DNA of 64,000 bases from a virus: the IMG/VR virus record IMGVR_UViG_3300032294_003343, positions 64,001 through 128,000 of that record, one strand, 5' to 3'. Shown here piece after piece: positions 31,247 to 64,000 of the stretch; position 1 is the first letter of the stretch, and every line of letters begins with the position of its first letter. Both the position numbers and the translations under genes were made by a program. Below the pieces are notes generated by a model, which did no database searches, was not told where the DNA came from, and worked only from the letters and a program-made list of their open reading frames with translations.

Positions 31247-31249
31247 AAT

Positions 31250-32032: not shown

Positions 32033-32050
32033 AAAGTTTAATCTAGACTG

Positions 32051-32087: not shown

Positions 32088-32097
32088 GGGAGAAAAT

Positions 32098-33777: not shown

Positions 33778-33793
33778 ACTGTAAAATCAGTTT

Positions 33794-34333: not shown

Positions 34334-34367
34334 GTAAAGAGGCTGGATACCTAGTATTTTCTTTATT

Positions 34368-35542: not shown

Positions 35543-35551
35543 GTGAAATAA

Positions 35552-36328: not shown

Positions 36329-36330
36329 CA

Positions 36331-41888: not shown

Positions 41889-41889
41889 A

Positions 41890-44340: not shown

Positions 44341-44350
44341 GTTTAGAGCT

Positions 44351-47448: not shown

Positions 47449-48035
47449 TGAAAGAATTTATAGAATTTTACGAAAAAGTTAAATCAAACAAAACACATAT
47501 TATTACAATCGATTCTGTAAAGTTTATTGTTCGTGAAATTACTTGGAAAGAAGGCTTACTGATTGATGCAAAATCGTTCAGAAAGAAAGACAATATTGTT
47601 TATCAAAATTCAGAATTTGAAAAAAGAGAAATTTTGAAGATTGCTATTCTGAGAGTATTTGACACCAATACTAATACTGATTACATACCTGATTTTGAAA
47701 CATCATTATTAGAAAAACTTGATTACACAATCATAGAAAAACTTTGGGTCGAATATCAAAATTATCTTTATCTTAACGCCGATGAAGCTAATTTTTACTA
47801 CATTGCAACAAAAAAATATTATAATCCAAATGATACAGAAACATACCCCGTGCCACCCTTAATCGTTGAAATTGATTATATGACACGAGGTTTAGTTTCT
47901 ATGAGTAAAGATGAATTTGCCAATCTTAGTATGAAAGAATTTGAAACAATTCAGTTAATTTTAGCTACTAAGAATGAAGCAAAGCCAGAAAGTGCAGCAG
48001 ATCTTGATATTGATTTAGAAAAAGAAATGCGCTAA
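47445..48035 (+). CDS. Tail assembly chaperone-like protein, 196 aa
   Basis: FIVREITWKEGLLID...LLEKLDYTIIEKLW, with a C-terminal SKDEFANLSMKEF. ATGA-coupled. Confidence 0.45.
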   Translation: MMKEFIEFYEKVKSNKTHIITIDSVKFIVREITWKEGLLIDAKSFRKKDNIVYQNSEFEKREILKIAILRVFDTNTNTDYIPDFETSLLEKLDYTIIEKLWVEYQNYLYLNADEANFYYIATKKYYNPNDTETYPVPPLIVEIDYMTRGLVSMSKDEFANLSMKEFETIQLILATKNEAKPESAADLDIDLEKEMR

Positions 48036-48841
48036 AGAGTAAATGAAAGTGTGTTTTTGTATTTATTTCTAACCATTTCAGCAATTGCAGTTCTGTCCCA
48101 TTGATGGAATAAAAAATACTTCTCTCCACTTTCATTACAAACATCTGTTCCATCAAAAAATACATCAACATTATCTCTTTTTATTGCTTCACCTGTAGCA
48201 CAAAAAGTATCAGTATATGGATGGCATAGCATAATATTAGGATTTTGTTTAAATTGTCTGTATAGATATCCCAACATAGCCTGATCTGGAATTACATAGC
48301 TATATCTTCTATTTATTGCTGTGAGAATAAGTGTGCAATAATTTAGAAATGCACTAGTTTTTCCGCCATATGTTCCACCATTGATTACATAAGAATCATC
48401 ATATCTTTCTTTGTTAAAAACTAATGTATTCAAAGTCCATTCATGCCATGCAGCATTACAATCATTTTCTTTTATTTGCATGCCTTCACAAACTAAAAAT
48501 AACTCTTTTTCTGGATGGCTTGCCATAAACTCAAATGGATCTTTTTGAATAATTACATCTCGCATGTCCCATTGCATGCAGTAATCAAAATCTTTACCAT
48601 GTTCACAAATCCAATTGTAATATGCAACATATGTCAAGTTGAAAGGATTCATGTTTTCTTCAACTTCTACTATATAATCGTAGTATTTTCTAAGTTTCTC
48701 TATGTTGCTTTGTGAAACATCATGTACACAAATTAGTTTCTTGAAGTTTTTTTGTTTTGCTAAAGATTGAAGATAAATATCAGCATCAATAGAGTCTAAT
48801 ATTCGATCACCTTGCAAAAAATTAAGCATTAAGTTATTCAT
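48032..48841 (-). CDS. GT-A-type glycosyltransferase-like protein, 269 aa
   Basis: DMRDVIIQKDPF (DxxD), INGGTYGG, DQAML and HQWDR motifs. Confidence 0.65.
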   Translation of the reverse strand: MNNLMLNFLQGDRILDSIDADIYLQSLAKQKNFKKLICVHDVSQSNIEKLRKYYDYIVEVEENMNPFNLTYVAYYNWICEHGKDFDYCMQWDMRDVIIQKDPFEFMASHPEKELFLVCEGMQIKENDCNAAWHEWTLNTLVFNKERYDDSYVINGGTYGGKTSAFLNYCTLILTAINRRYSYVIPDQAMLGYLYRQFKQNPNIMLCHPYTDTFCATGEAIKRDNVDVFFDGTDVCNESGEKYFLFHQWDRTAIAEMVRNKYKNTLSFTL

Positions 48842-48878
48842 AAAAACATTATACTCTTTAGAATCAAAAATTATTTTT

Positions 48879-49712
48879 CTATTTATTAAAATTACCAGAT
48901 ATCAATAATTCTTCATAAGTTTTCTTAATTCCAGAATGCAATCCAATCAAATTGATATCAAAAAGATGCAGATTATATTCACCATAATAACTTAATCCTA
49001 AATTTTCTTTTTCAATAATTGTTTCAACATTATAATCAGATAAGTTATTGATAATTGTTGCAATATCAGATAGTTTGTATTTTTGCTGATATGAACAATT
49101 TATAGTTTGTTGTTTTACACTAGCATCGATTGTGAACTTTACAACTTGACATAAATCATCCATATAGAAAAAGTCCATAAATTTATCTTGATGAATTTGT
49201 ATAGGTTTTCTATTTATGTAATTTATTATGTTAGCTTTGATCATTCTAGAAGTAAGTTCATCACTATTGAAAACATTAAATAGTCTTATATTATAAAAAC
49301 CTTTCAATAAAAGTCCAGATTTAGCAATTAAGTTCTTGCTCATTCCATATGGATCGATTGGATGTGCGCACTTCAAATCAGTTGAAAAGTCTATGTTATA
49401 TCTTCGGTCTAATTCTGCACCTGATCCAAATGAAATATATTTATCAAAAGACAAAGAATTATCTAAAATATTTTGATGCATAATACAGTTTTCGTAAAAA
49501 ACAGTATTTTCATCATCTTTAAGTCTACTTCCACCAGTTGTTGCAGTATGAATGACAACATCAAAATACTTGTCTTTAAAAAAATGTTTTACTTCTTCTG
49601 AATTTAATAAATTAAGATTTGATCTATTAGTCAGAGTCAAATTATAATCTTTAAGATTTTTTGCTAAATTTCTAGCTACAAATCCATTTGAACCTGTGAT
49701 CAGGATATTCAT
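48879..49712 (-). CDS. NAD-dependent epimerase/dehydratase (extended SDR)
   Basis: ILITGSNGFVA, FGSGAE, YGMSK (YxxxK), DFFYMDD. Confidence 0.9.
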   Translation of the reverse strand: MNILITGSNGFVARNLAKNLKDYNLTLTNRSNLNLLNSEEVKHFFKDKYFDVVIHTATTGGSRLKDDENTVFYENCIMHQNILDNSLSFDKYISFGSGAELDRRYNIDFSTDLKCAHPIDPYGMSKNLIAKSGLLLKGFYNIRLFNVFNSDELTSRMIKANIINYINRKPIQIHQDKFMDFFYMDDLCQVVKFTIDASVKQQTINCSYQQKYKLSDIATIINNLSDYNVETIIEKENLGLSYYGEYNLHLFDINLIGLHSGIKKTYEELLISGNFNK

Positions 49713-51430
49713 TTAATGTCTTCTAAACTTCCAGGAATAATTTTGCCATTTTCATCAATACCTTTTGCAGATACTTTTGGCTCATGAAGTTCCCAAGGAT
49801 CTGTCATCACTTCAATAATTTCAGGACCTGAATGTGAAAAAGTACTTTGTATTAAGTCAAGTTGATTATTGTTCAATATTTGACTGTACTTAATCCCAAA
49901 AGCATCAGATATTTTTTTGAAATTTGGAAGAGTAACTCCTGATGAAGGTTCAGAACCAACTAAATTTCCTTTGAAAAATGAATTTTGTGTAAGTTTGATT
50001 GATAAGTACCCATCATTATTCAGAATAAATATTTTGATTGGTAAATTATGATGAACGACAGTTTGCAATTCTTGCAAGTTCATCATAATACTCCCGTCGC
50101 CTTCTATGCAAATGATAGTTTTATTACATCCATAATAGGCTCCTATTGCTGCAGGAAGACCATAGCCCATTGGAGCAGTACCTTCATTAGAAAAAAGCTG
50201 TTGATTTGATCGCAGCCTTACAGTCTTGTGAAGAACAACATGAGCTGTTCCATCACTAGTAACTATAATGCTATCATCATCAAGAAATTCTTCTAACTTT
50301 TCAGAAAACACATAGGTACTTACATAGTTTTCTAACTTTCTATGTTTATCTAATACAAGTTGTTCTTCAGATCTTTTGAGCTTAATATAGTCCAGCCATT
50401 CTCTTATATCAAAGTTTGCTTCATATGTTTCAAAAAACTCAAAAAAATTCTTTAAATCTAAATTGATTCCAATGAAAGAATCATTTTGATCAAATTTTTT
50501 TATTTCAAAATTATCTACATCTATTACTATTTTTTTAGCATTTGGAGCAAACTTGTTAAGATCGTATCCAATTACTTTAGGATTTAATCTAGACCCTAAA
50601 GATATAATAAAATCAGCTTGTTGAATTATCTGGTTTGATGTTTTTTGCCCTAAGATTCCAATTTTACCAGTGTAAAATTCATAATCATAATTGATAATGT
50701 CTACTGCTGAATGAGGTCCTGATACAACTGGCAACTGATACTTTTGAATAAAATTCTTAAGCTCATTGATGGTGCCAGAAGATTTAATTCCATTGCCTAT
50801 AACAACAACTGGCTTTGATTTTTGAAAATTATCAAAACAACTTTTCAATAATTCTATTTGTTTTGAATTGTCACTTTCATCAAATATTTGAGCAGATTTA
50901 AGAGATTCAACATCAATTTCCGAGGCTTGAATATCAAGAGGTACATCCAACCATACGGGTCCTGGTCTCTTATTAACGCATTCATTCCATGCAGTTTCCA
51001 AATGATATTTAATTTCATTTTTATCATAAACTGTTTCTGCATACTTAGTCATAGTTTTTACTGTATTGACAATATCAAATTCTTGTTGTCCAATTTGTCT
51101 ACATCCAGTATTGATTGACATTTGCTCAGTAGGAACTTGACCAGATATAACTATCATTGGGATAGAATCTTGGTAAGCACACAAAACTCCAGTAATTGCA
51201 TTTGTTCCTCCTGGACCAGTAGTAACCAAAACACAACCAGGTTTACCAGAAGTTCTGAAATATGCTTCTGCTGCCATTGCACAGGCTTGTTCATGGTGAT
51301 TGCAAACGTATCTTAAGCCTGATTTACCAAGTGAATCAATTAAATGCATACAGCCTCCACCGGATACGGTGAAGACTGTGTCTATGCCTTTTTCTTTTAT
51401 AAATTCAAAAATATAGTCTGATAATTTCAT
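49709..51430 (-). CDS. ThDP-dependent acetolactate synthase-like enzyme (YerE-like sugar C-branching candidate), 573 aa
   Basis: GGGCMHL, HHEQACAMAAE, TTGPGGTN, RPGPVWLDVPLD, MGYGLPAAIG, GDGS...NN ThDP motif; sugar-cluster context. Confidence 0.85.
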   Translation of the reverse strand: MKLSDYIFEFIKEKGIDTVFTVSGGGCMHLIDSLGKSGLRYVCNHHEQACAMAAEAYFRTSGKPGCVLVTTGPGGTNAITGVLCAYQDSIPMIVISGQVPTEQMSINTGCRQIGQQEFDIVNTVKTMTKYAETVYDKNEIKYHLETAWNECVNKRPGPVWLDVPLDIQASEIDVESLKSAQIFDESDNSKQIELLKSCFDNFQKSKPVVVIGNGIKSSGTINELKNFIQKYQLPVVSGPHSAVDIINYDYEFYTGKIGILGQKTSNQIIQQADFIISLGSRLNPKVIGYDLNKFAPNAKKIVIDVDNFEIKKFDQNDSFIGINLDLKNFFEFFETYEANFDIREWLDYIKLKRSEEQLVLDKHRKLENYVSTYVFSEKLEEFLDDDSIIVTSDGTAHVVLHKTVRLRSNQQLFSNEGTAPMGYGLPAAIGAYYGCNKTIICIEGDGSIMMNLQELQTVVHHNLPIKIFILNNDGYLSIKLTQNSFFKGNLVGSEPSSGVTLPNFKKISDAFGIKYSQILNNNQLDLIQSTFSHSGPEIIEVMTDPWELHEPKVSAKGIDENGKIIPGSLEDIK

Positions 51431-52500
51431 TGCAAATCATCTTTTGTTAATGGACTACCTTTTTTCAAATCTTTGTTTAGGATAAATTCATTATCCATAA
51501 ATTCTCTAGAAGTGATTTGATTTATGTCTGGTAAATAAGGTACAGCCGCATAAACATCCTTTAATGTTACAGTATACCCTTTTTTCAAATCCTTATTTAT
51601 ATAAAAGCCTCGGTAAAGAGCAGCTAAATATTCACTCTCTTTTTCATCAATAATTCTTCTTTGTGATGAGGATGTTCCACACATTTGGTTTGACTTATGA
51701 AATGCTTTGAACCATTCGTCAACTTGATGAGGTAAAGAACAATATTTACTTACTTCTTTCTGCTCATGGTTTTTTGGATAAGGTATATCAATGTGTCTCT
51801 CCCAAGTCCTTACTCCTTTTGCATAAGAAATGAACATTGAAGATTCCCAATCGTGATACTCATGAGTGGAAAAACCAATTGTATGATTTGGATATTTAGA
51901 TTTCAAATAGTCTATTTGATTTAACTCAAGTTCAGAGTCTTCGCTTGGATATTTAGAAACACAATGATTTATAGCTAATGGGATTTTTCTATTGTCAAAA
52001 AATCTAACGACATCATCAATTTGTTTTTCATTAGCCCCACCAGTAGAGATAATTACAGGTTTCTTAGTACTGGCAATTTTTTGAAGCAGAATCCAATCAT
52101 TGATATCTGCACTAGAAACTTTGATAATTGGTAAATCAAATTGCACACACCAATCAACAGACTTTTCGTCAAAAGGTGTAGCCATGGGTATGCAATTAGT
52201 TTTCTTGATGTATTCGACAAGTTCAGACATTTCGTCAAAACTTAGCTTTGTTTTTAAAGTTTTTTGAATGTATCTTTCTTTTTTGGGAAGAGTAAGTAAA
52301 TCTTGATTCTTCCCATTATCAACAAACTCACTATGAATGAAATTTTCAACATCTCTGAATTGCAACTTAATTGCAGCTTTGATTTTGTTATTTCGTACAA
52401 CAGAAGCAAATTCTTTAACTATTTGTTTGCCTCTTGACAAAGAGCCCCAATGGTTATTTGCAAGCTCTAAAACAAATAAATTATGGAAAATTTCGTTCAT
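51427..52500 (-). CDS. neuB: N-acetylneuraminate/nonulosonate synthase family protein with C-terminal SAF-like domain
   Basis: ELANNHWG, IKLQ, TPFDEKSVD, KPVIISTGG, HCVSKYP, GFSTHE, ERH. Confidence 0.88.
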   Translation of the reverse strand: MNEIFHNLFVLELANNHWGSLSRGKQIVKEFASVVRNNKIKAAIKLQFRDVENFIHSEFVDNGKNQDLLTLPKKERYIQKTLKTKLSFDEMSELVEYIKKTNCIPMATPFDEKSVDWCVQFDLPIIKVSSADINDWILLQKIASTKKPVIISTGGANEKQIDDVVRFFDNRKIPLAINHCVSKYPSEDSELELNQIDYLKSKYPNHTIGFSTHEYHDWESSMFISYAKGVRTWERHIDIPYPKNHEQKEVSKYCSLPHQVDEWFKAFHKSNQMCGTSSSQRRIIDEKESEYLAALYRGFYINKDLKKGYTVTLKDVYAAVPYLPDINQITSREFMDNEFILNKDLKKGSPLTKDDLQ

Positions 52501-52507
52501 AAAAATA

Positions 52508-53404
52508 TTATAGTGTAAATTGAACTAAAGGTAAAGTAATTCCAGTTTGATCAATAACTTCAGACTTGTATCCATATGATTCCAAAATCTTTGTAAATGT
52601 ATCAATGTTAAGTACTCCATTTACATTATGAGCTTCCACAATAATTTTGGGTTTATAATGATCAAAAAACTCTTTATTTTCAAAGATAAAAGATTCTGCA
52701 CCCTCAATATCACACTTAATAAAATCAACTCTATCAAGGTTATATTTTTGTACGATATCAAAAAGAGTGTAACATTTTACTTCAACAATCTCGCCTCTTT
52801 CTCCAACAAGATCAACTGCTGAAGATCCCATATTTTGTTCAAGCGAAAATTTCAGTGTTCCAGTATGTGTCCAAACTGCAGCATTTAATAATTCAATATT
52901 CTCTGATTGAAACAACGCAATATTTTTTTGCAAGCATTCGAAGTTTGTAAAATCAGGTTCCATAGCAATAACTTTTCCTGACTTTCCAACATTATTTGAA
53001 AAAGCTATTGACGTTAAGCCAGAATATGCACCAAGGTCAAACACTACATGTCCTTCTGACAAATTAGCAAAATCCAAATATTGCTCAATTGTTACAAATG
53101 GTTCAGCAAGTGATGGGCAAAAAGGCTCAAATAAATCAAATCCCTTGACCTTATGTTGTGCAGGTTTTGAAAAATCTACTACTTTTTTCCCATCTACAAT
53201 TTTGTAAGAAACTGAACTAAAATAATAGTCAAACCCATACATTATAGTTTTTATGTAAACATTTTGTCTTTTATTGATAATAACGATTTGATCATCATTA
53301 ATAATGTGGATATTGTCATCTACTTCTACCACTTGCATGTTCAGTTCTAACATTGCTTCATAAACTGTTTTCTTTTTTGGTAAAACATCAGTTTCAGTTA
53401 CCAT
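52508..53404 (-). CDS. FkbM-family methyltransferase, 298 aa
   Basis: VFDLGAYSG, AMEPD, NAAVW, FIKCDIEGAE. Confidence 0.88.
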   Translation of the reverse strand: MVTETDVLPKKKTVYEAMLELNMQVVEVDDNIHIINDDQIVIINKRQNVYIKTIMYGFDYYFSSVSYKIVDGKKVVDFSKPAQHKVKGFDLFEPFCPSLAEPFVTIEQYLDFANLSEGHVVFDLGAYSGLTSIAFSNNVGKSGKVIAMEPDFTNFECLQKNIALFQSENIELLNAAVWTHTGTLKFSLEQNMGSSAVDLVGERGEIVEVKCYTLFDIVQKYNLDRVDFIKCDIEGAESFIFENKEFFDHYKPKIIVEAHNVNGVLNIDTFTKILESYGYKSEVIDQTGITLPLVQFTL

Positions 53405-54351
53405 ATAAAATTCTCCTTATAGTATTTGATAATTTCAATAATTTCATTATCAAAAATACACTTTGGTGTCCATCCAAGATTTCGCAATTTACTGTCATTG
53501 AGTGCATATCTGACATCTTGACCTGGTCTAACAATATTAAAATCGATGTACTCTCTCGGATCTTCAATATGTTTGTCAAAGTAGATATCTAATATTTTTT
53601 CAACTGTTCTTATATTTGATTGTTCAAATCCACCAGCAACATTAAATATCTCATTTTTACAATTGTTCTCAATTATAGTCAAAACAGCGCTGGCGGTATC
53701 TTTAGCATGCAACCAATTTCTTACAGGTTTGCCTTCTGCATGTAAAGGTATTCTTCTGCCAAGTTTAAGGAATTTACACGCTTTTGGGATAAGTTTTTCT
53801 ACATATTGACCTATGCCATAATTATTTGTTGGTCTGATTATAATATAGGGTATGTTGTAAGTTCTTGACCATGCTGTAATCAATTGATCTGCAGCAGCCT
53901 TGGTTGCTGAATAAGGGTTAGATGGCTTAAGAACGTCAGTTTCAATATGTTCACCATCTGATATATCACCATAAACTTCATCAGTGCTAAAATGAATAAA
54001 TGTAGGAACAATATATCCCTCTTTTTGATAAGCCCTCAAAAGTTCAAGAATGTTATAAACACCATCAATGTTTGAATGTAAAAAATCATCACTTTTACGT
54101 ATTGAATTATCTACATGTGTTTCGGCTGCAGTATTGATAAAATAATCGCAGTCAACCAATCTATCTAAATCACATATATCTTTTTCTTCAAACTTAAACT
54201 TTGGATTAGATTTAAATTCTTCCAATTTAGAAATTCTTGATGCATATGTACATTTATCAATTCCGAAAACATACCAGCCTTTATCAAGACAAGCTTGAGT
54301 TACATATGACCCAATAAATCCTAAGCATCCTGTCACGTATACTACTTTCAT
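53398..54351 (-). CDS. rmlB: dTDP-glucose 4,6-dehydratase-like (start revised from 54375)
   Basis: VTGCLGFIGS, DKCTYA, AAETHVDNSI, STDEVYG, PYSATKAA, NNYG..Q..EKLIP, RPGQDVRY. The ATG at 54351 forms an ATGA overlap with the upstream stop. Confidence 0.9.
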   Translation of the reverse strand: MKVVYVTGCLGFIGSYVTQACLDKGWYVFGIDKCTYASRISKLEEFKSNPKFKFEEKDICDLDRLVDCDYFINTAAETHVDNSIRKSDDFLHSNIDGVYNILELLRAYQKEGYIVPTFIHFSTDEVYGDISDGEHIETDVLKPSNPYSATKAAADQLITAWSRTYNIPYIIIRPTNNYGIGQYVEKLIPKACKFLKLGRRIPLHAEGKPVRNWLHAKDTASAVLTIIENNCKNEIFNVAGGFEQSNIRTVEKILDIYFDKHIEDPREYIDFNIVRPGQDVRYALNDSKLRNLGWTPKCIFDNEIIEIIKYYKENFIW

Positions 54352-55223
54352 GATGTTTTCTTTTTCTTTTTGCAAGCTAGCATATATAAGTTTGTGAAAT
54401 GAACATAATCTAAAGCTGCCTGATAATTCAAAACTTGCTCCTTGATAATTTCAAGTCCACAAGATTCAATTAAGCAATGCAAAGATTTATTAGAATAAAA
54501 ATTTATATGTTCATGCCAATGTTTTTTAGTTTTATATAGATCTAATGACTCATTATTTTTTGCCATAAGATCTTCACAAGGAACCTCTAGATATAAAACC
54601 GTATTTTCGCTCATGGATTCAATTATATCCATAAGTAATTGCTTTGGATAAGAGACATGTTCAAGAACATTGCTACAAACTACCAAATCATAAGCATGAT
54701 TTTTAATCATAGATGGTTCTATTTTTTCACAATTTGGAAACAATGTTTTGTCTGTCCATTCATAGATGTAAACTTTGCTAGCTGTTTCTAAAAATGGAGT
54801 GTTTTTACCATCATCTCCTCCCCAATCCAATACGAGTGGTTTAATGCTGATAAAGTCAAGAAAACTTTCAATTTCTTTTTTATATCCAATAGCTACATCC
54901 AAATTTTTCTGTTTATCTTTATAACCTGGTTCATAAGAATCTCTGACATCTATATATTTTGATTCTCTGTAATTCTCATATAAGTTTTTTAATTCATGAT
55001 CTTCAAATCTGAAATCACTGAATAAAAAACCACAATCTTGGCATTGCACAGACTTGCAAGGCATATAAATAGTGCCATTTGGTACTCCATACAAATTCCA
55101 TGTGTCATCTATTTCAAATAAATCATAATCGAATATCATTTTTGACATAAATGGCATCAAAATAGCAGAAGATTTTTCTAGTTTTTTACTTTCACAACAA
55201 GGGCAGGATAAAGCTAAATTCAT
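54348..55223 (-). CDS. Class I SAM methyltransferase with N-terminal Zn motif, 291 aa
   Basis: CPCC...CQDCG, VLDWGGDDG, YDLVVCSNVLEHV, YLEVP, HEHINFY. Confidence 0.85.
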   Translation of the reverse strand: MNLALSCPCCESKKLEKSSAILMPFMSKMIFDYDLFEIDDTWNLYGVPNGTIYMPCKSVQCQDCGFLFSDFRFEDHELKNLYENYRESKYIDVRDSYEPGYKDKQKNLDVAIGYKKEIESFLDFISIKPLVLDWGGDDGKNTPFLETASKVYIYEWTDKTLFPNCEKIEPSMIKNHAYDLVVCSNVLEHVSYPKQLLMDIIESMSENTVLYLEVPCEDLMAKNNESLDLYKTKKHWHEHINFYSNKSLHCLIESCGLEIIKEQVLNYQAALDYVHFTNLYMLACKKKKKTS

Positions 55224-55326
55224 TTTGCATTCTCAAAAAAATATTATACATTCATAATTAACAAACGTAAAAACTTGACCAACATAATCTCTATAGTTAT
55301 TGAAAATTGATTTTTTTATAAGTAGG

Positions 55327-55332
55327 TATAAT
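55327..55332 (+). promoter_or_regulatory. -10 box in the divergent intergenic region of the glycan cluster
   Basis: TATAAT 18 nt before the ATG at 55351. A TATAAT is also present on the minus strand at 55243-55248. No well-spaced -35 seen. Confidence 0.4.
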
Positions 55333-55350
55333 TAAATTAGGATTATTTAT

Positions 55351-55752: not shown

Positions 55753-56690
55753 TGGAAAAAGTCTTAATTACTGGTGGAGCTGGATATTTAGGTTCTACCC
55801 TTACTGAAGTGTTGTTGTCTAAAGGCTATGCAGTTACTGTATTAGACAATTTAACTTATAAGCAACTTTCTCTCACGTCTTTCTGTCATAATAAAAACTT
55901 CAATCTTATTGTTGGAGATGTACGGGATACCAAACTTCTTACAAGTCTGGTGGAAACTCATGACATCATCATTCCATTAGCTGCAATTGTAGGTATGCCA
56001 GCTTGTAAAAAAGATCCAGATCTAACAGTAGCTGTAAATTATCAACAAATTAAAAACATTGTTGAGGTAATTCAGCCAAGTCAGAAATTGTTAGTTCCTA
56101 ATACAAACTCTCAATATGGAAGTTCTGAAACAATCATTACAGAAGAAAGTCCATTCAATCCTCTTTCTCTTTATGCGCAAACAAAATGCGATGCTGAAAA
56201 GCGTGTTTTAGAATGGGGTAATGGTATTTCTTTAAGGCTTGCAACAGTATTTGGAGTTTCTTACAGACAAAGAATGGATTTGCTTGTAAATGATTTTGTT
56301 TATCGAGCTTTCACTGATGAGTTTTTAGTTTTATTCGAATCTCATTTCTTACGAAACTATGTGCATGTAAGAGATGTTGCTAAAGCTTTTGTTCATTTGA
56401 TTGAAAATTATGAAACCTGCAATAACAATGCATTCAATGTAGGTCTTACTTCTGCAAACATGTCAAAACTTCAACTTGCTCAAAAGGTCAAAGAATATGT
56501 GCCAAGCTTAGTCATTATTGAAGAACAATTTAAAGAAGATTTTGATAAGAGAAACTATGTTGTTTCTAATGAGAAACTTGAAAAAACAGGTTGGTCATGT
56601 GATTTTTCATTGGACGCTGGAATTCAAGAATTGCTTATGGCATATCAAATGATAGCGAATTTCAAGAATAAAGATTTTACAAATTTATAG
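55752..56690 (+). CDS. NAD-dependent epimerase/dehydratase (SDR), 312 aa
   Basis: ITGGAGYLG, LAAIVG.PAC, YAQTK, RLATVFG...RMDLLVN, HVRDVA, DKRNY. Confidence 0.9.
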   Translation: MEKVLITGGAGYLGSTLTEVLLSKGYAVTVLDNLTYKQLSLTSFCHNKNFNLIVGDVRDTKLLTSLVETHDIIIPLAAIVGMPACKKDPDLTVAVNYQQIKNIVEVIQPSQKLLVPNTNSQYGSSETIITEESPFNPLSLYAQTKCDAEKRVLEWGNGISLRLATVFGVSYRQRMDLLVNDFVYRAFTDEFLVLFESHFLRNYVHVRDVAKAFVHLIENYETCNNNAFNVGLTSANMSKLQLAQKVKEYVPSLVIIEEQFKEDFDKRNYVVSNEKLEKTGWSCDFSLDAGIQELLMAYQMIANFKNKDFTNL

Positions 56691-56697
56691 GAATATT

Positions 56698-57717
56698 ATG
56701 AAAGTACTCTTCGTTTACAAACCTTTTTATCAACATGATACAAAATCAGAAAACCATCAAGAAAAGCTTAGAGGTTCATTTCATGCAGCTTTTGGTGAAG
56801 ATAACCCAGATTATCAAATGGAAGTTTTACATTTCGGTAATGCTCCTGGATTAATTAGAACCCCCAAAGAAATGAATGAAGAAATGCTCAAGAGAGATTT
56901 CGATATTTGTATTGTATGCGAAGAACTTCATTTTGCGGTTGAGCTAGATACTATCAAAAAACTTGGTAAGAAGTTATTTCTTACTAATTGGGACTTGTTT
57001 ATTGGAACAGCTCCGAGCATACATGTCAACTTCAGATTAATGATTAAGAAGCCTAGAATCTGGGGTGAGCACAAATTTCCAGTTCCAATGATTGAAGCAA
57101 CTCAATATTGTAAGTTTTTAGTTGGTGACTATGGTTACGATGAAATTCTTCCAAATATGTATGCTATTGATCAGCCTATAGATTCACGAGTTTTTAATAC
57201 TGAAGGATGCACTGAAGAAAGTAGAACTACAGATGTTGGCTTCAATGGAATGATTTATATTCAAGAAAGAGCTAGATATTATGAACTCTTTCGAAAAGCT
57301 AATCTGCCTATCACATATACCGGAAGCGTCAACAAAGATATTTTCCCAGCTCAAGTTTTGTCAACTAAAGACTATGCTGAGATTTATAAGAAAACCAAAA
57401 TCTCTTTGTGTTTTACAGAAGCAATTTTTAGTCCAAACAATCATACAAGAAAAGGCAGAATTTCAGAAGTAGCATCTTGTGGAAGTTTTTTACTTACTAC
57501 TCATCCTGACTGTATGAAGTATCGTGATAAGTCTTGGTACAAAATTGGGGAGCATTTTGACTCTATGGATGAATCTGACTGTGTAGATAAAGTTAGATAT
57601 TATTTGAATAATCCTGAAAAAAGAATTCAAATGGCTGATGCAATGCATAAACATTGGCAAGAAAATTATTCTCCAGTCAAATGGTGGGGAAATGTCTTTA
57701 GATGGGCAAAATTATAA
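56698..57717 (+). CDS. Glycosyltransferase, CgeB/Glyco_trans_1_2-like, 339 aa
   Basis: DVGFNG...ER...YAEIYKKTKISLCF...KGRISEVASCGSFLLT...KVRYYLNNPEKRIQMA. Confidence 0.8.
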   Translation: MKVLFVYKPFYQHDTKSENHQEKLRGSFHAAFGEDNPDYQMEVLHFGNAPGLIRTPKEMNEEMLKRDFDICIVCEELHFAVELDTIKKLGKKLFLTNWDLFIGTAPSIHVNFRLMIKKPRIWGEHKFPVPMIEATQYCKFLVGDYGYDEILPNMYAIDQPIDSRVFNTEGCTEESRTTDVGFNGMIYIQERARYYELFRKANLPITYTGSVNKDIFPAQVLSTKDYAEIYKKTKISLCFTEAIFSPNNHTRKGRISEVASCGSFLLTTHPDCMKYRDKSWYKIGEHFDSMDESDCVDKVRYYLNNPEKRIQMADAMHKHWQENYSPVKWWGNVFRWAKL

Positions 57718-57751
57718 ACTGTTAGTATAATGAGAATAAGGTAAAAAATAT

Positions 57752-59260
57752 ATGCGAAAACTAGATATTTTGTTTGTACACCCCAATGCTTCTGAAATTA
57801 TTTACCAGGATTTGAGCAAAAAAAGTGCTGCAATTGAACCACCAATTTGGGCAGGCATGTTGGCAAATCACGTAAGGACTAGAAATTTTTCAGCTGCTAT
57901 CTTAGATTGTGAAGCTGAGAGATTGAATTGGGAAGATGCTAGTAAAACTATTGTTGATTATAATGCAAAAGTAATTTGTTTTGTAGTTTATGGCCAACAA
58001 CCTTCTGCTTCTTCACAAAACATGACTGGAGCAGTTGGTATTGCTAGATTAGTAAAGCAACTTACAGATACTCCTATTGTCTTTGTTGGTGGCCATGTTG
58101 CTGCATTACCAGATGAAGTTCTTGCTGAAGATTGTGTTGATATCGTACTTCTTAACGAAGGTGTGTATGCAATCTCAAACTTGCTTTCTACAGATTTGTC
58201 TGTCGAGCAGCTTAAAAACTGCACTGGAATTGGATTCAAATTAGATGGACAAATTTACAAAAATGAACCAGAAAGAATTGTTCCTAAATCCTTATTAGAG
58301 CAAGATTTACCTGGAATGGCTTGGGATTTACTTCCATCATTCAATAAATACAGAACTGCAGGATGGCATTCATGGAGTAATAATACGGAAAATGCTCCTT
58401 TTGCTGCTCTTTACACAAGTTTAGGTTGTCCTTACAAGTGCTCGTTTTGTATGATCAACATCATCAATAGAACAAGTAATCTCCCATTGATTACTTCTGA
58501 AGATTCTAATATGTTCAGATGGTGGACCCCAGAATTTATTATCAAGCAGTTTGATTATTTTGCTGAAAACAATGTTAGAAATATCAAGATTGCTGATGAA
58601 TTATTTGTATTGAATCCAAATCATTTTCAAAAAATATGTAACTTAATTATTGAGCGTGGATATGATTTTAACATCTGGGCATATTCTCGTGTAGATACTT
58701 GTAAACCACAATTTTTAGATACATTAAAGAAAGCTGGTGTTAATTGGCTTGGACTTGGAATTGAAAACCCAAATCAAACTTTGAGACAAGAGATTCACAA
58801 AGATCACTTTGTTGATGTAAAAATTACTGATTTGATGCAAAATATGAGAGATGCTGGAATAAGCATTGGTGGAAATTATATTTTTGGATTGCCAATGGAT
58901 ACTCATGAATCTATGCAAAATACTTTAGATTTTGCTATGGCTAATAAAACCGAAATGGCAAATTTTTACTGTGCTATGGCATATCCAGGAAGCCCACTTT
59001 ATAAAACAGCAGTTGCAAAGGGTTGGAAGCTTCCAGAAACATATTCAGGATATAGCCAACATTCATATGACATGTTGAATTTGTCAAATGATTTTCTTTC
59101 TGCCAAAGACATCGTAGCATTCCGAGATAAAGCTTTTGTAACTTATCATTCTGATGAAAACTACTTAAACTTGTTAGAAAATAAATTTGGCGTTCATGCA
59201 AAACACAATGTTGAAGATGTGTTGAAGATTAAACTTAAGAGAAAGTTATTAGGTGATTAA
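57752..59260 (+). CDS. Cobalamin-binding radical SAM protein, 502 aa
   Basis: EPPIWAGMLA, FVGGHVAALP (B12-binding), SLGCPYKCSFC (CxxxCxxC), LGIE, YIFGLP.DT, AYPGSPLY. Confidence 0.92.
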   Translation: MRKLDILFVHPNASEIIYQDLSKKSAAIEPPIWAGMLANHVRTRNFSAAILDCEAERLNWEDASKTIVDYNAKVICFVVYGQQPSASSQNMTGAVGIARLVKQLTDTPIVFVGGHVAALPDEVLAEDCVDIVLLNEGVYAISNLLSTDLSVEQLKNCTGIGFKLDGQIYKNEPERIVPKSLLEQDLPGMAWDLLPSFNKYRTAGWHSWSNNTENAPFAALYTSLGCPYKCSFCMINIINRTSNLPLITSEDSNMFRWWTPEFIIKQFDYFAENNVRNIKIADELFVLNPNHFQKICNLIIERGYDFNIWAYSRVDTCKPQFLDTLKKAGVNWLGLGIENPNQTLRQEIHKDHFVDVKITDLMQNMRDAGISIGGNYIFGLPMDTHESMQNTLDFAMANKTEMANFYCAMAYPGSPLYKTAVAKGWKLPETYSGYSQHSYDMLNLSNDFLSAKDIVAFRDKAFVTYHSDENYLNLLENKFGVHAKHNVEDVLKIKLKRKLLGD

Positions 59261-59803
59261 ATGAAAAAGGCACTCATTATTACTTGGGAAAAGTATCAAG
59301 ACCACGAACTAATTTATCCATATTATTCATTAAAAGAACATGGGTATGAAGTGACTTTGATGGCTAATCAAGTTGGAAAAATTTGGGGCAGCTTGGGAAC
59401 TCATATGCCTTGTGATGTTGAGACTAAAGTTTTTGAAGATGAAAATATTCGTCAAGAATTTTTAAAAGATTACGAAATTCTAGTAGTTCCTGGTGGTGTC
59501 AAAGCACTTGAAAAATTGCGACAAGAAAAGGGTGTTTTGGAATTTATTCGTCAGTGGAATTCACAAAATAAAACAATTTTCTGTATTTGCAATGGTGCTC
59601 AGTTATTAATTTCAGCAAAAATCTTAAATGGTAGAGTGATGTCTGGTTATTACTCTATTGATGTTGACATCGAAAATGCTGGTGCTACTTATGATAGAAG
59701 CCCAGTAGTAGTTGATGAAAATATCATTTCTTGCCCACATTATGACTTTATGGGCTTGTGGCTTAAGACTGCTTTTGAAGTACATGAAAACAGGAACATA
59801 TAG
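59261..59803 (+). CDS. DJ-1/PfpI family protein, 180 aa
   Basis: YQDHELIYPYY, VPGG...LR, ICNGAQLL (nucleophile elbow), VVVDENIIS. Confidence 0.88.
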   Translation: MKKALIITWEKYQDHELIYPYYSLKEHGYEVTLMANQVGKIWGSLGTHMPCDVETKVFEDENIRQEFLKDYEILVVPGGVKALEKLRQEKGVLEFIRQWNSQNKTIFCICNGAQLLISAKILNGRVMSGYYSIDVDIENAGATYDRSPVVVDENIISCPHYDFMGLWLKTAFEVHENRNI

Positions 59804-60458
59804 CAATAATATTGTCAAGAAACCTTGGGGTTATGAATATTTAGTATTTGAAAATTCCCAAGTGGCTTTATGGGCTTTATTTATTGCAAAAAATCACCAA
59901 ACATCAATGCACTGTCATCCCAATAAAACAACTGGGCTGATAGTGCTTGATGGAGCTTGTGAGATAAGTTTTTTTTCTAACTCTTTTGTTGTAGATGAGC
60001 TGGACAAAATTATGATTAGAAAAGGCTTATTTCATTCAACTAAATCAATAAGCGAAAATGGATCAGTAGTTTTTGAAATTGAAACACCAAATAACAAGCA
60101 AGATTTAGTTCGATTCGATGATTCTTATGGTAGAAAAGGTTTACCTTATGAGGGCAAAGAATTTGAACAACCCAAATCTGACAGTTGTTTGTGGATCAAT
60201 GAAGATTTTCAATTAAATTTTTCAAAATTTGCAAATTGTGAGTTAGAAATTCACACAGTTGATGATATTTCATTTTTTGACAATTACGATGATTCAGTCA
60301 ATTTTATATTTTTAAGTGGCGGTGTTATGACAAACTATGACGTAACACTTGTTAATCCTGGCGACATCATCAACAATATTATTGCAAAAAAAATTACTAG
60401 TATTTTTAAAAATATCATTCCAAATACAAAATTATTGATTATCAAAAAGGCAAAATAA
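59784..60458 (+). CDS. Cupin domain protein (mannose-6-phosphate isomerase-like; start revised from 59712)
   Basis: VKKPWGYEY, TSMHCHPNK, GLFHS, EIETP..KQDLVRFDDSYGR. The ATG at 59784 minimises overlap. Confidence 0.8.
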   Translation: MKTGTYSNNIVKKPWGYEYLVFENSQVALWALFIAKNHQTSMHCHPNKTTGLIVLDGACEISFFSNSFVVDELDKIMIRKGLFHSTKSISENGSVVFEIETPNNKQDLVRFDDSYGRKGLPYEGKEFEQPKSDSCLWINEDFQLNFSKFANCELEIHTVDDISFFDNYDDSVNFIFLSGGVMTNYDVTLVNPGDIINNIIAKKITSIFKNIIPNTKLLIIKKAK

Positions 60459-60484
60459 GCATATAATTATTTAGAGGTTTTAAT

Positions 60485-61405
60485 ATGTCTACTTATCCAG
60501 AAAGAAAACAAAGATTTGAAAATTTAAAAGAAGCATGGTCATTGAATCAATTGAATGATTTGATGTTACAATACAATCCTCCTCAAAATTTATTGTCTGA
60601 TTTCAAGTTTGCTGTAATGCTTTATATTTCAAAAGCATTTGATTTTGAATTTACAGCTGATGAAACTGAATTTATTAACAGGCTTGATAGCAAGAGATAT
60701 TTTAAGGATAATGTCACGCCAAATGGAGCTGTCGTTCCAAAAAAAGAATATCAATTAGAATTTAATATGGTCTTGAGGGCATGGTCTAAATTAGTTCAAA
60801 ATATGATATCAGGCCAACCAAGTTTACTTAATAAAATTAGAATGACACCTAATGTAAGAATTAAGTTTGGTGTTGAGCTTGAAGAAAATTATGGTAGGCC
60901 ATTAAATACTAGTATTCCACATTCTGATGCCTGGATTGATGGTCCTTGGGGAATAATTTGTTTCACACCATTGCTAGGCGATGTTGAAAACAACAATTTA
61001 TATCATTATAAGCCAAAAAATCCTGATCAATTTAACGATGATTGGTTAGCATTATCGCCAACTTTCGGAGATATGCAATGGGTTTTAGAGTATTACGAGC
61101 AATCTGATGAAATAACTCCAGTGAAAGGCAAAATTCATTTAGTTGATTATGCTCTTATTCACGAAACACATAGAAATGAAAATTGTGGAACAAGAATTTC
61201 TATCGACACTACTATTTATGTGGGAGATTATGATATTCACGAAGATCGACAATCTGAATATCTTGATGAAATGAAGATTTTTGGAGAAGATCTGTTTATT
61301 ACAACAAATAGATCAGTGCATGAAAATCAAATAGTAGATAAAAAAACTTCTTTTTCTCATTACACATCAGGTACGTTAAAAATCCATAATTGCAATGACA
61401 ACTGA
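60485..61405 (+). CDS. Putative Fe(II)/2-oxoglutarate dioxygenase-like protein, 306 aa
   Basis: PHSDAW (HxD)...LIHET (distal His)...RISID (R-x-S). TATAAT and GAGG upstream. Confidence 0.55.
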   Translation: MSTYPERKQRFENLKEAWSLNQLNDLMLQYNPPQNLLSDFKFAVMLYISKAFDFEFTADETEFINRLDSKRYFKDNVTPNGAVVPKKEYQLEFNMVLRAWSKLVQNMISGQPSLLNKIRMTPNVRIKFGVELEENYGRPLNTSIPHSDAWIDGPWGIICFTPLLGDVENNNLYHYKPKNPDQFNDDWLALSPTFGDMQWVLEYYEQSDEITPVKGKIHLVDYALIHETHRNENCGTRISIDTTIYVGDYDIHEDRQSEYLDEMKIFGEDLFITTNRSVHENQIVDKKTSFSHYTSGTLKIHNCNDN

Positions 61406-62228
61406 TTATCTTACAGATGTATTTACTAAAATTTCATTATGCAGACATTTTGAAAACGTAGTTTATGAAAAAATACAAGATAAATCTATAAGAGCACCAA
61501 CTTATTTATCAGCTGGTCAGGAAAGCATTCCATGTTCAATTGCCTCTTATCTTCAAGCTAAAAATATTGACCCGAATATTTTTATTCAGCATAGGGGGCA
61601 TTCAACTTATTTGGCTTTTGATGCTTCGCCTGAAAAGCTTGTTGATGAGTTGCTCGGCCTAGAATCAGGTTGCTCTTTTGGTATGGGTGGATCAGCATCA
61701 ATTCAATCATTTGAAAAAAATATTTTTGGACATGATGGTTTGATGGGTTCACAAGTGCCCATAGCTGTTGGTCATTGTTATGAAACTAGAAGTCCGACAA
61801 TTGTTTTTATGGGAGATGCTTCTGCCGAAGAAGACTATGTAGGATCTGCAATAGGTTGGGCATCTACTAAAAATTTACCCATACTTTTTATCGTTGAAGA
61901 TAATAATTTATCAATACTAACAGAGAAAAAAGTAAGAAGAAATTGGGCTATGCACGATTTGGCAATAGCCTACAAAATGAATGCTTATGATATCAGTGAT
62001 GATCCTACAATAATTGCTGAACATCTTAAGGACGTATTTAATGGGCCATTGTTATTAAATATAAGAACTGTCAGAAAGTATTGGCATGCTGGTGCTGGCA
62101 TAGATGGAGATTATTTTGATAGATATGAATGGCTCAAAAAAATTATGCCACTTGAAGTATTGAATATTGATGAAGAAAATAAAAATAGGGTAGAGGCATT
62201 ATGGCAATCACGCTTAGAGAAACTATAA
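61395..62228 (+). CDS. ThDP-dependent dehydrogenase E1 alpha-like subunit, 277 aa
   Basis: YLSAGQE, HRGH, GMGGS, MGDASAEE...VEDNN, HAG. Confidence 0.88.
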   Translation: MTTDYLTDVFTKISLCRHFENVVYEKIQDKSIRAPTYLSAGQESIPCSIASYLQAKNIDPNIFIQHRGHSTYLAFDASPEKLVDELLGLESGCSFGMGGSASIQSFEKNIFGHDGLMGSQVPIAVGHCYETRSPTIVFMGDASAEEDYVGSAIGWASTKNLPILFIVEDNNLSILTEKKVRRNWAMHDLAIAYKMNAYDISDDPTIIAEHLKDVFNGPLLLNIRTVRKYWHAGAGIDGDYFDRYEWLKKIMPLEVLNIDEENKNRVEALWQSRLEKL

Positions 62229-63112
62229 AATCTTTAGTCAAAAATCATTTGCTTGAAAAAAAGGGCAAAGTTTATGGGCAATGTTTATCAGCTGTTGGAT
62301 GGGTAGGCGGAACATTGCCAGAACTCTTTGAAGAAGATGGCATGGTTGATTTATCAATGGCTGATGTTGCTAATGGTGCAATAACTGTTGGTGCTGCACT
62401 TGCAAACACAAGACCAATTTATGTCGTCCGATATCAAGGATTTCAATGGTACAACTGTGTTTCAATATTAAATTACGCAGCTAAAAGTAAGGATATTTGG
62501 AAAAGATCTTGTCCTGTATTAGTGAGAAGTGTTGCTATGGAAGGTGCAATTGGACCAGTTGCAGGTTCATCTCATCACTCTTTATTTTATAGAATGCCAG
62601 GAATAAAAATTGTTTCTCCTATGACTCCAAATGAATACGAACATGCATACAATGAATTTATGAATGATGATGTTCCATATTATTTTTCAGAACATAGAAA
62701 AAGTTTTGATAATGACAAAGACTTAGAAAACATCATTTATGAAGACGCTGACGTTGTGCTGATTCCATTTTCAGTGACAAGATTTTCAGCTCAAAAAGCA
62801 TCTGAAATTTTATTCAATCAAGGTATTAAATGCAATGTCTTGCACCAATTGTGGATAAAGCCATTGAAGTTTGATGATAATTTTTATAAAAATGCTTCTA
62901 ACTGCAAATATGGTTGCATTGTGCTAGATGACGATTATACGTCAGGCATAATTGAATCTGTGGCATACAAATTAAGTAAAAAAATAAATAAGCCTATAGA
63001 ATGTATGGGTTTAGATGATAAAACTGCTGGTTTTGCTAAAGAACATGATAATTTGCCTCCAGATGAACATCAAATAGTAAAAAAAGTGATTGAAATGATT
63101 GGTAAAAGATAA
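62201..63112 (+). CDS. E1 beta / transketolase C-terminal-like subunit, 303 aa
   Basis: VGAALANTRPI, GPVAGSSH, MPGIKIVSPMTP, EHR, WIKPL. Confidence 0.85.
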   Translation: MAITLRETIKSLVKNHLLEKKGKVYGQCLSAVGWVGGTLPELFEEDGMVDLSMADVANGAITVGAALANTRPIYVVRYQGFQWYNCVSILNYAAKSKDIWKRSCPVLVRSVAMEGAIGPVAGSSHHSLFYRMPGIKIVSPMTPNEYEHAYNEFMNDDVPYYFSEHRKSFDNDKDLENIIYEDADVVLIPFSVTRFSAQKASEILFNQGIKCNVLHQLWIKPLKFDDNFYKNASNCKYGCIVLDDDYTSGIIESVAYKLSKKINKPIECMGLDDKTAGFAKEHDNLPPDEHQIVKKVIEMIGKR

Positions 63113-63121
63113 AATAAAGTT

Positions 63122-64000
63122 ATGAAAATATTAATTATTACCACAAAATGGGCTGCTGGTACAATGAAAAATGTATATTGTGCTACGCATAGATCTTTAG
63201 TTAGACCAGCTCAAGAGTTATTTAAGAATAATCCAGATGTAGATTTAGCAATCGAATATATCGAAGTAAATGAAATTTGGTCTGCAAAGCAGTTAAATGA
63301 GAGATTGCTCAGAAATGACTTTGATATTTGTGTTTTTTCGCCTTTTGAGAGCATAGTTCCATCTTTAGATACTACAAAAAAACTTGGTAAAAAATTGTTC
63401 ATTTGTGTATGGGATCAACTCAATGGAGCAACAAATAACAGAGCAGTTAACATGCGATTGTTCTTAAAAAATCCATACAATAATGGTGTTGTCAATTTTG
63501 AACATTCTATGTGTGCATACTCGCAATATTGCAACATTTTAGTAGGCGGAAACTTATATGGACAAAAGTTTCCTAATATTTACGCAGTTTACGAACCCAT
63601 GGATACTACCGTTTTGTATCCTGTGCCAGAAGAAGAAAAATCACATGAATTAGCTTTCATTGGATCACTTTATGAATTTGAAAGACAGTGGTTTGTCAAT
63701 AAACTTTTAGAGAAAAAATTTCCATTGCATGTGCTAGGTGGCAAAGGTGAATCAGAACAAAAACTCTCTTATAATGATTGGGCAAAGGTTAATAGAGAAA
63801 CAAAAATCTCACTGAATTTCAATGGTAATTTTTGCATGGGCTGCCTTAAAGGAAGAGTGTGGGAAATTGCTGCTTGCAACAATCTTATGATAGCAACTAT
63901 ACCTGATGTATACAAATTTCCCAATGGATCATGGTTTACAGAGGATGTTCACTATGTAAGTATTGATAAAGTCAATTACTTAGATAAGATTAGATATTAC
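63122..64000 (+). CDS. Partial CgeB-like glycosyltransferase, paralog of 56698-57717
   Basis: Not in the ORF track (runs off the window's right edge). Hand translation MKILIITTKW...NDFDICVF...LDTTKKLGKKLFICVWD...FIGSLYEFER...TKISLNF...KGRVWEIAAC...DKIRY, open to 64000. Confidence 0.85.
   Translation, partial: MKILIITTKWAAGTMKNVYCATHRSLVRPAQELFKNNPDVDLAIEYIEVNEIWSAKQLNERLLRNDFDICVFSPFESIVPSLDTTKKLGKKLFICVWDQLNGATNNRAVNMRLFLKNPYNNGVVNFEHSMCAYSQYCNILVGGNLYGQKFPNIYAVYEPMDTTVLYPVPEEEKSHELAFIGSLYEFERQWFVNKLLEKKFPLHVLGGKGESEQKLSYNDWAKVNRETKISLNFNGNFCMGCLKGRVWEIAACNNLMIATIPDVYKFPNGSWFTEDVHYVSIDKVNYLDKIRYY

Follow-up and report, generated by a model that had tools for sequence, protein, structure and literature searches.

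The 64,000-nucleotide window analyzed here, bases 64001-128000 of the linear 169,183-bp contig IMGVR_UViG_3300032294_003343 (an IMG/VR virus record), carries a real, well-delimited, and unusually rich phage glycan island. The island comprises 25 genes (22.3 kb) and runs from window position 48032 to the window-equivalent position of approximately 70353 (genome end 134353), extending 6.35 kb past the window end. It is located between g069, the last gene of a structural arm, and the gene for the major capsid protein (MCP) with the head module, that is, inside the morphogenesis region of an apparently lytic phage. The island suggests a strain-specific sugar coat on the phage particles. Its strongest feature, which goes beyond what the original prediction for this DNA had envisaged, is polymorphism: near-identical phages differ in the presence or absence of the island and in the cassettes that it holds.

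The open reading frames (ORFs) downstream of the MCP gene in related phages were mapped onto the contig and then clustered into families. Twenty-eight loci with an MCP at least 94% identical were compared, most of them covered for the first 10 kb or less only. These loci contain 269 island ORFs, which fall into 82 families and approximately 22 arrangements. The size of the site varies between 0.9 kb (relative G003) and 22.3 kb (the studied contig), with values of approximately 7 kb in G002 and 17.7 kb in G001, and at locus L021 the site is represented by a gene for a glycosyltransferase of the GT-A fold alone. The 0.9-kb site of G003 consists of the tail-side gene and two small ORFs, followed by the MCP gene. 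No GT-A, GT-B, or DegT-family gene was found on the whole G003 contig (84% complete, MCP 96% identical), so the whole system is dispensable for making particles. The replacement genes in the cassettes of other relatives also encode sugar enzymes, including a HAD-nucleotidyltransferase fusion, GT92/GT2 glycosyltransferases, a GHMP kinase, a TylC3-type C-methyltransferase, an HpcH aldolase, a RuBisCO-like protein, and a kinase-nucleotidyltransferase fusion. The common island genes are far more diverged than their flanks, with identities of 44-90% at L009, where the MCP is 100% identical. As an accessory glycan locus with the character of a cassette, the island differs in content between near-identical phages.

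Two further genes were observed at the site in relatives. A LAGLIDADG homing-endonuclease-like gene (PF14528, E 1.5e-9; L009:10910-12115, also in L011, L013, L015, L024, and L031) is located directly between the MCP gene and the glycan cassette and could promote cassette exchange. Alternative cassettes contain a gene for a RuBisCO-large-chain-like protein (PF00016, E 6e-33; L026:12641-13816, also in L031, L118, and L119), an unusual partner of sugar genes.

In line with the original prediction, the contig (GC content 33.6%, completeness approximately 47% according to CheckV) proved to be viral. Besides its listing as an IMG/VR virus, PHROG matches to a major head protein (3.6e-68), a portal (2.9e-33), and the large terminase subunit TerL (3.3e-28) were found just past the window end, and the presence of the portal, TerL, and an HK97-type major capsid gene on the same contig identifies a tailed phage (Caudoviricetes). 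The nearest cultured relative is Bacillus phage G, whose gp27 is 48% identical to the MCP. At least 156 MCP relatives (57-100% identity) were found in IMG/VR, on contigs of up to 300-490 kb. Together with its relatives, the contig belongs to a clade of jumbo phages from freshwater that is cosmopolitan in distribution and related to phage G. Hsp70 is encoded in all five large genomes of the clade that were examined. The island-less relative G003 has two Hsp70 genes (C1:254567-256276 and 116919-118595), each of which matches the family in two adjacent pieces (residues 2-73/74, then 101-598 or 104-595), which suggests an insertion or break near residue 75-100.

The part of the island that lies within the window and its immediate neighborhood contain the following features, with family calls based on Pfam and NCBIfam profiles and folds on AlphaFold2 (AF2) models compared by Foldseek.

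47445-48035, plus strand: g069, last gene of the rightward structural arm, 196 amino acids (aa), without a Pfam or PHROG match.
48032-48841, minus strand: g070, glycosyltransferase of the GT-A fold, 269 aa, without a Pfam match; as a landmark gene it marks the end of the island.
48879-49712, minus strand: g071, short-chain dehydrogenase/reductase (SDR) of the nucleoside diphosphate (NDP)-sugar type (Pfam Epimerase, 2.7e-19; weak NCBIfam matches only, to GDP-fucose synthase, RmlD, and heptose epimerase), candidate reductase for a YerE-like product.
49709-51430, minus strand: g072, acetolactate-synthase-type enzyme dependent on thiamine diphosphate (ThDP) and FAD, YerE-like candidate for a C2 branch; TPP_enzyme_N, TPP_enzyme_M, and TPP_enzyme_C are present.
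51427-52500, minus strand: g073, phosphoenolpyruvate-condensing synthase of the NeuB/PseI family (Pfam NeuB, 5.8e-39; PseI 125 bits and NeuB 114 bits, both under the cut-offs).
52508-53404, minus strand: g074, FkbM-family methyltransferase (Methyltransf_21, 3.5e-18; TIGR01444, 101 bits against a cut-off of 37.7).
53398-54351, minus strand: g075, RmlB-like NDP-hexose 4,6-dehydratase (TIGR01181, 302 bits, E 3.9e-90, under the equivalog cut-off of 365), 66-74% identical in relatives.
54348-55223, minus strand: g076, class I S-adenosylmethionine (SAM) methyltransferase (Methyltransf_23, 3.4e-14).
55224-55350: intergenic region between divergent genes; direct reading of the sequence shows TATAAT-like boxes 24-25 nt ahead of the first ATG on either side.
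55351-55752, plus strand: g077, small conserved protein, 133 aa, weak match to DUF7164 (E 0.0055); with 81-95% identity in relatives, one of the most conserved island genes.
55752-56690, plus strand: g078, GalE/4,6-dehydratase-like SDR (Epimerase, 7e-35), 87-96% identical in relatives.
56698-57717, plus strand: g079, first GT-B glycosyltransferase paralog (PF13524, 2.6e-15).
57752-59260, plus strand: g080, B12-binding radical SAM enzyme with B12-binding and Radical_SAM domains (best NCBIfam match HpnJ, 125 bits, under the cut-off).
59261-59803, plus strand: g081, DJ-1/PfpI family (PF01965, 4.5e-33).
59715-60458, plus strand: g082, cupin of the mannose-6-phosphate isomerase C-terminal type (PF01050, 2.4e-4, a weak match under the cut-off).
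60485-61405, plus strand: g083, possible PhyH-like Fe(II)/2-oxoglutarate dioxygenase, the nearest ESM Atlas clusters being named PhyH (a lead only); no Pfam match and no PDB sequence match were found.
61395-62228, plus strand: g084, E1 alpha-like ThDP subunit (E1_dh, 1.7e-15; pyruvate dehydrogenase E1 alpha, 99 bits, under the cut-off).
62201-63112, plus strand: g085, E1 beta-like subunit (Transket_pyr, 2e-11; Transketolase_C, 3.5e-7).
63122-64000 and on to window-equivalent 64117, plus strand: g086, second GT-B paralog (full gene L008:1123-2118; PF13524, 1e-14).

All 17 island genes that had been claimed within the window are real ORFs, and family-level support was obtained for 15 of them, g077 being among those without it. 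Searches of PDB sequences gave no useful lead for g079 and g083 and, for g070, only a weak one to GT6. Past the window, the island continues with the rest of g086, a second, shorter E1 alpha/beta-like pair, the third GT-B paralog, and genes for RmlC-like and Mpo1-like proteins, a PfkB kinase resembling the heptose-7-phosphate kinase domain of RfaE, and two DegT-family proteins (g090 and g094). The intrinsic terminator of the MCP gene, a strong hairpin with a T-run, occupies positions 134354-134427 of the genome (window-equivalent 70354-70427, L005:6354-6427). The RfbH-like gene g094 directly follows it, starting a few bases downstream on the same strand. The opposite end is formed by g070, which is convergent with g069 and overlaps it by 4 nt; g069 itself is syntenic with g063-g068 in relatives. 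The Mpo1-like gene g093 (L008:6686-7018, 110 aa; PF06127, E 1e-28) is the second most widely shared island gene (17 of the 28 loci) and has no obvious part in sugar synthesis.

The island encodes an elaborate set of sugar-modifying enzymes, among them the two DegT-family proteins. In both g090 and g094, the Schiff-base Lys is replaced by His within the motif SFY[PF]AHH, and g094 contains a Cys-rich insert (C246, C248, C257, and C260) that is absent from g090. A His-for-Lys replacement, with or without a Cys-rich insert, is a hallmark of pyridoxamine phosphate-dependent 3-dehydrases with or without an Fe-S cluster (E1 and ColD). Against the RfbH equivalog model NF011936, g094 scores 443 bits, over the 423-bit cut-off. 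The shared motif and the insert in g094 are the grounds for reading both genes as 3-deoxygenases: g094 is probably an RfbH/E1-type and g090 a ColD-type 3-dehydrase, rather than aminotransferases. Three ThDP systems are present, namely the YerE-like g072, which has the full acetolactate-synthase architecture (335 bits against the acetolactate synthase models, under the equivalog cut-offs) and to which the SDR gene g071 is translationally coupled, and the two E1 alpha/beta pairs. The dehydratase g075 is far closer to dTDP-glucose dehydratase (302 bits) than to CDP-glucose dehydratase (63 bits).

Taken together, these assignments suggest that the products are yersiniose-type sugars: 3,6-dideoxy, C-branched, and methylated. 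In the proposed pathway, an NDP-hexose of the host would be dehydrated at C4/C6 by g075 and then deoxygenated at C3 by the Fe-S E1/RfbH-type g094 together with the ColD-type g090. Branching or extension would follow, performed by the YerE-like ThDP enzyme and the two E1 alpha/beta ThDP pairs, and the SDRs, the RmlC-like protein, the cupin, the FkbM-family and class I methyltransferases, and the B12 radical SAM enzyme would carry out reduction, epimerization, and methylation, yielding 3,6-dideoxy branched sugars of the yersiniose type. The NeuB-like g073 may add an ulosonic acid.

A scan of bacterial genomes with the RfbH-like protein returned five loci only, four of which are short contigs of metagenome-assembled genomes from unrelated phyla, so neither a host nor a donor can be inferred. 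The closest "bacterial" RfbH-like homologs (L092-L095, 62-76% identity) are found on short contigs assigned to Verrucomicrobiota, Planctomycetota, Bacteriovoracaceae, and Flavobacteriales, which may be mis-binned phage.

The absence of a flippase, a polymerase, an ABC exporter, and a membrane initiating transferase, noted for the window in the original prediction, extends to the whole 169-kb contig and to the island flanks of 80 relatives, where a hydropathy scan detected no polytopic membrane protein; in the Pfam scans of the island and of relatives' cassettes, no family of these kinds turned up either. Strong hydrophobic spans and signal-like N-termini are lacking in all island proteins, and the 82 gene families of the site include no flippase, polymerase, ABC exporter, or initiating phosphoglycosyltransferase. 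These sequence features support a pathway of soluble enzymes in the cytoplasm. The island was also said to show no compositional break, which was borne out by the codon usage: the relative synonymous codon usage of the island correlates with that of the structural genes at r = 0.988, and the GC content of third codon positions (GC3) is 0.218, compared with 0.206 for the rest of the phage. The island is native in composition to the phage. Since the contig is viral, export and initiation genes were not found, and the composition is native, a cellular lipopolysaccharide (LPS) or capsule locus is excluded. The gene families are indeed typical of bacterial polysaccharide loci, as would be expected of a bacterial O-antigen or capsule locus or of an assembly chimera, but such cassettes occupy this very site, with the same phage genes on either side, in dozens of viral contigs that come independently from different metagenomes, the codon usage equals that of the phage, and the homologs of the transferases occur almost only on phage-like contigs, which leaves this explanation a negligible probability.

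Four glycosyltransferases are encoded in the island, one of the GT-A fold (g070) and three paralogs of the GT-B fold (g079, g086, and g089). The GT-B proteins constitute a phage-restricted family with homologs almost only on phage-like contigs; g079 is 35-36% identical to g086 and g089, which share 40% identity with each other. The g070 family comprises at least 128 clusters in the phage clade, is constant in length, and contains no cluster with a Pfam match. Its gene is almost always the last one of the island, convergent with the structural gene g069, and in relatives the two genes are always adjacent. The AF2 model of g070 (GT-A; predicted local distance difference test, pLDDT, 88.5) matched the GT6 enzyme BoGT6a and the GT8 enzyme glycogenin at E 1e-8, as well as many viral GT-A proteins, including those of giant viruses. 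Glycogenin is a protein-glycosylating enzyme. The AF2 model of g079 (GT-B, pLDDT 91) matched the GT4 enzymes MshA, PimA, and PglA, and also BshA, tetrahydrobiopterin glucosyltransferase, and LanGT2, whereas the alpha- and beta-glucosyltransferases of phage T4 (AGT and BGT; TM-scores of 0.5-0.63) ranked under the GT4 enzymes. Because the GT-B matches span GT4, DNA, and small-molecule transferases, the fold does not reveal the acceptor.

Glycosylation of the virion is the best reading of the island, although we put it at slightly less than an even chance. The GT-A and the three GT-B transferases would attach the sugars in the cytoplasm to exposed virion proteins during assembly, and each strain would wear its own glycan coat over an MCP that stays 94-100% identical across the clade. 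This reading fits the position of the island, the solubility of its enzymes, the way in which the GT-A gene is paired with a structural gene, and the diversification over a constant capsid. The corresponding claim of the original prediction is sustained as to a soluble cytoplasmic pathway in a virus; as to the virion target, it is left at the tentative level just given, the comparisons of the MCP and of g096 having produced no acceptor signature.

Several observations weigh against this reading. The MCP has equal length and near-identical sequence with or without the island and therefore no island-linked acceptor extension. The protein g096 (L005:7316-7966, 216 aa), encoded just upstream of the MCP, is variable (59-92% identity among homologs in L009-L037, where the MCP is 94-100% identical), with the variation concentrated in loops rich in S, T, A, and G, and the alignment of these loops across relatives showed no visible link with the presence of the island. 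No sugar-1-phosphate nucleotidyltransferase (PF00483) was found on the approximately 47%-complete contig or in the near-complete relative G001, no cytidine monophosphate (CMP)-transferase on the contig, and no E3-type (DdhD/AscD) reductase in G000-G004, from which PF00175 and PF00111 are absent; the pathway would therefore need enzymes supplied by the host or encoded in the half of the genome that is not sequenced. The islands of some relatives do contain a nucleotidyltransferase (a HAD-NTP-transferase fusion; RmlA, 6e-71, in G005), and a 4Fe-4S protein is present in the island of one relative in place of an E3-type reductase. To these points are added the fold matches of the GT-B enzymes, both to T4 AGT and to GT4-type enzymes, which commonly act on lipid-linked or small acceptors. 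A further candidate, the identification of g096 as the counterpart of the phage G decoration protein gp26, was rejected: the two occupy the same position, but there is no significant similarity between them (E 0.56).

The GT4-type matches (PimA, PglA, and MshA) are what would be expected if the island remodeled the host envelope, its NDP-sugars and peripheral transferases modifying lipid-linked O-antigen, capsule, or glycoprotein precursors that host flippases and polymerases then export. Such remodeling could exclude other phages, deter grazers, or stop progeny from sticking to debris. The RfbH, YerE-like, and RmlB/RmlC-like genes represent classic O-antigen chemistry, the cassette diversity resembles that of O-antigen loci, and similar gene sets of large cyanophages are usually interpreted in this way (PMC12801897). 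Nevertheless, none of the 82 site families is an initiation or export gene of the kind that bacterial loci normally carry, and the Wzx/Wzy machinery of the host would have to accept exotic sugars. The locus is situated within the morphogenesis region of an apparently lytic jumbo phage, and close relatives with the same capsid carry very different cassettes or none. We consider host-envelope remodeling unlikely, albeit the most serious competitor of virion glycosylation.

The small-molecule transferases among the GT-B matches (MshA, BshA, tetrahydrobiopterin glucosyltransferase, and LanGT2) would suit another cytoplasmic acceptor, such as a non-virion phage or host protein, RNA, a small molecule, or a free oligosaccharide, with a role in counter-defense or metabolism. 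The toolkit also resembles natural-product sugar pathways (C2-branching ThDP enzymes, B12 radical SAM, FkbM, and TylC3-type methyltransferases). However, no aglycone-forming genes were found in the island or close to it, the presence of four transferases suggests an oligosaccharide more than a single glycoside, and the position between the head and the structural arm, together with the constant pairing of the GT-A gene with g069, fits a virion role better. An acceptor of this kind is still less probable than the host envelope.

The similarity to T4 AGT and BGT raises the question of DNA hypermodification, in which the transferases would glycosylate modified phage bases as a protection against restriction, as in T4, RB69, and DLP3. 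Phages are known to carry NDP-sugar genes for DNA arabinosylation, and all described DNA routes (via 5-hydroxymethylcytosine, 5-hydroxymethyluracil, and 5-hydroxycytosine: 5hmC, 5hmU, and 5hoC) begin with a thymidylate-synthase homolog (PMC13326640). Thymidylate synthase (PF00303) is absent from the contig and four large relatives (G000-G004), one of them 100% complete; in the absence of such a homolog, the island is not a known DNA-glycosylation system. Moreover, the lack of transferase and DegT genes in the close relative G003 would be unusual for an obligatory DNA modification, and the chemistry of the island is far more elaborate than that of known DNA glycans. DNA as the target is thus highly improbable.

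A more specific form of the virion-glycosylation reading, which we regard as conceivable but rather doubtful, is that of a swap-in locus at the junction of the head and structural genes, by which each strain would paint a near-invariant capsid or its fibers with its own exotic glycan, the cassettes being gained, lost, and exchanged by recombination. The glycans would contain 3,6-dideoxy, C-branched, methylated, or ulosonic sugars and would represent a viral counterpart of O-antigen serotype diversity; homing endonucleases beside the capsid gene may help the exchange.

Among known systems, the island would appear to come closest in its working to the virion-glycosylation clusters of giant viruses and to mycobacteriophage transferase cassettes, with a chemistry like that of bacterial O-antigen loci for 3,6-dideoxyhexoses. 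Giant viruses (Mimivirus, Megavirinae, and chlorovirus) provide their virions with glycans by means of enzymes that they encode themselves, with complete pathways of rare, bacterial-type sugars, own soluble transferases, and clade-specific clusters, much as observed here (PMC9614988). The GT-A model of g070 with its giant-virus matches adds to this likeness. Giant viruses differ in having eukaryotic hosts and fibril or capsid glycans that are experimentally shown, whereas the island belongs to a tailed phage in which cassettes turn over among 94-100% identical MCPs.

In mycobacteriophages, transferases of the phage are reported to glycosylate subunits of the capsid and of the tail tube (Freeman et al. 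2023, as cited in PMC12619734). The common features are soluble phage transferases near structural genes, a proposed cytoplasmic modification of exposed virion proteins, and variation of the trait among related phages. The island is nevertheless far larger, with approximately 20 pathway enzymes that build its own rare sugars compared with a few transferases, and it differs further in the absence of an island-linked C-terminal extension of the MCP, in a host that is possibly Gram-negative-like, and in being known from genes alone.

The original prediction considered the scale of the system to be well beyond that of known phage cassettes. This was too strong, since cyanomyoviruses with 22 cell-wall or glycan genes, including 13 glycosyltransferases, have been published (PMC12801897). 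Large T4-like cyanophages (S-SCSM2R, S-SCSM1, and P-SSM2) have many glycosyltransferases, NDP-sugar epimerases, and RmlC or Kds genes, and for them the host surface, DNA, and virion are all debated as targets (PMC12801897). The island differs from these gene sets in its phage-G-like lineage, in 3-deoxygenation and ThDP-dependent branching, in the arrangement as one compact cassette at a fixed head/structural junction, and in presence/absence polymorphism.

With the rfb loci of Yersinia pseudotuberculosis and Salmonella (DdhA-D, YerE/YerF), the island shares an RfbH/E1 match at the equivalog level, a 4,6-dehydratase, an acetolactate-synthase-like ThDP enzyme with an adjacent SDR, and cassette diversity. 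Unlike them, it lacks a nucleotidyltransferase, an E3 reductase, Wzx/Wzy, an ABC exporter, and an initiating transferase, its dehydratase looks dTDP-type rather than CDP-type, and the locus is viral. With no export or initiation genes found, it does not belong to the class of O-antigen loci.

Moraphages, large aquatic phages with predicted Bacteroidota hosts, all encode Hsp70/DnaK, and four putative glycosyltransferase orthogroups are among those common to at least 80% of their genomes (PMC12619734). The likeness to the present clade, in which Hsp70 is also found in all five large genomes, is one of gene content; a variable glycan island or its chemistry is not described for moraphages in PMC12619734. 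In the literature searched, two features appear to be undescribed: the combination of 3-deoxygenation with three ThDP systems, and the polymorphism of cassettes at one fixed site.

The original prediction further placed the island directly next to phage tail genes. Gene order places the island beside the structural arm, but the tail identity of that arm was not confirmed; the verified neighbor is the MCP gene, on the other side. Pfam and PHROG scans of the structural arm (window 30902-48035) and of the leftward proteins gave one weak match to a head-tail adaptor and nothing else, and two of these proteins had no tblastn match among 50,697 phage records, for which reason the label of tail genes stands unverified. 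The minus strand of window 802-30642 contains a run of very large ORFs (1450, 1221, 969, 3472, 1294, and 881 aa), which have no Pfam or PHROG match where tested and presumably encode virion or injected proteins. Ser and Thr together make up 13-22% of their residues, and Asn up to 16%. An MWY leader was found at the N-terminus of none of the island proteins, which gives no sign of the enzymes being packaged.

The arrangement of TATAAT-like boxes in the divergent intergenic region of the island recurs at g055, the first gene of the structural arm. Boxes of this kind, located 19-25 nt before the first ATG at window 55224-55350, at 30643-30901, and at other operon starts, imply very short leaders. 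They resemble a sigma-70-type -10 element and not the Bacteroidota-type promoter that would be expected for the hosts predicted for moraphages. The similarity of the boxes at the starts of the island and structural operons means that early and late expression are not separated by them.

To our knowledge, experimental proof of glycosylated phage virions is so far limited to a few actinobacteriophages, the transferase cassettes of which are small. Should the island serve to decorate the particle, glycan "serotypes" would rank among the main ways in which abundant environmental jumbo phages vary, with a bearing on adsorption, grazing, particle stability, aggregation, and recognition by host defenses. 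The island would also be a source of rare-sugar enzymes, including E1- and ColD-type 3-dehydrases, three ThDP systems forming C-C bonds, a B12 radical SAM enzyme, and new GT-A and GT-B families. The hypervariability of the site makes the target of the glycan directly testable. Even if that target is the host surface, a fixed site turns over at least 82 gene families while the MCP remains 94-100% identical, and this turnover provides a clear and testable example of diversifying selection that acts on a glycan encoded by a phage.

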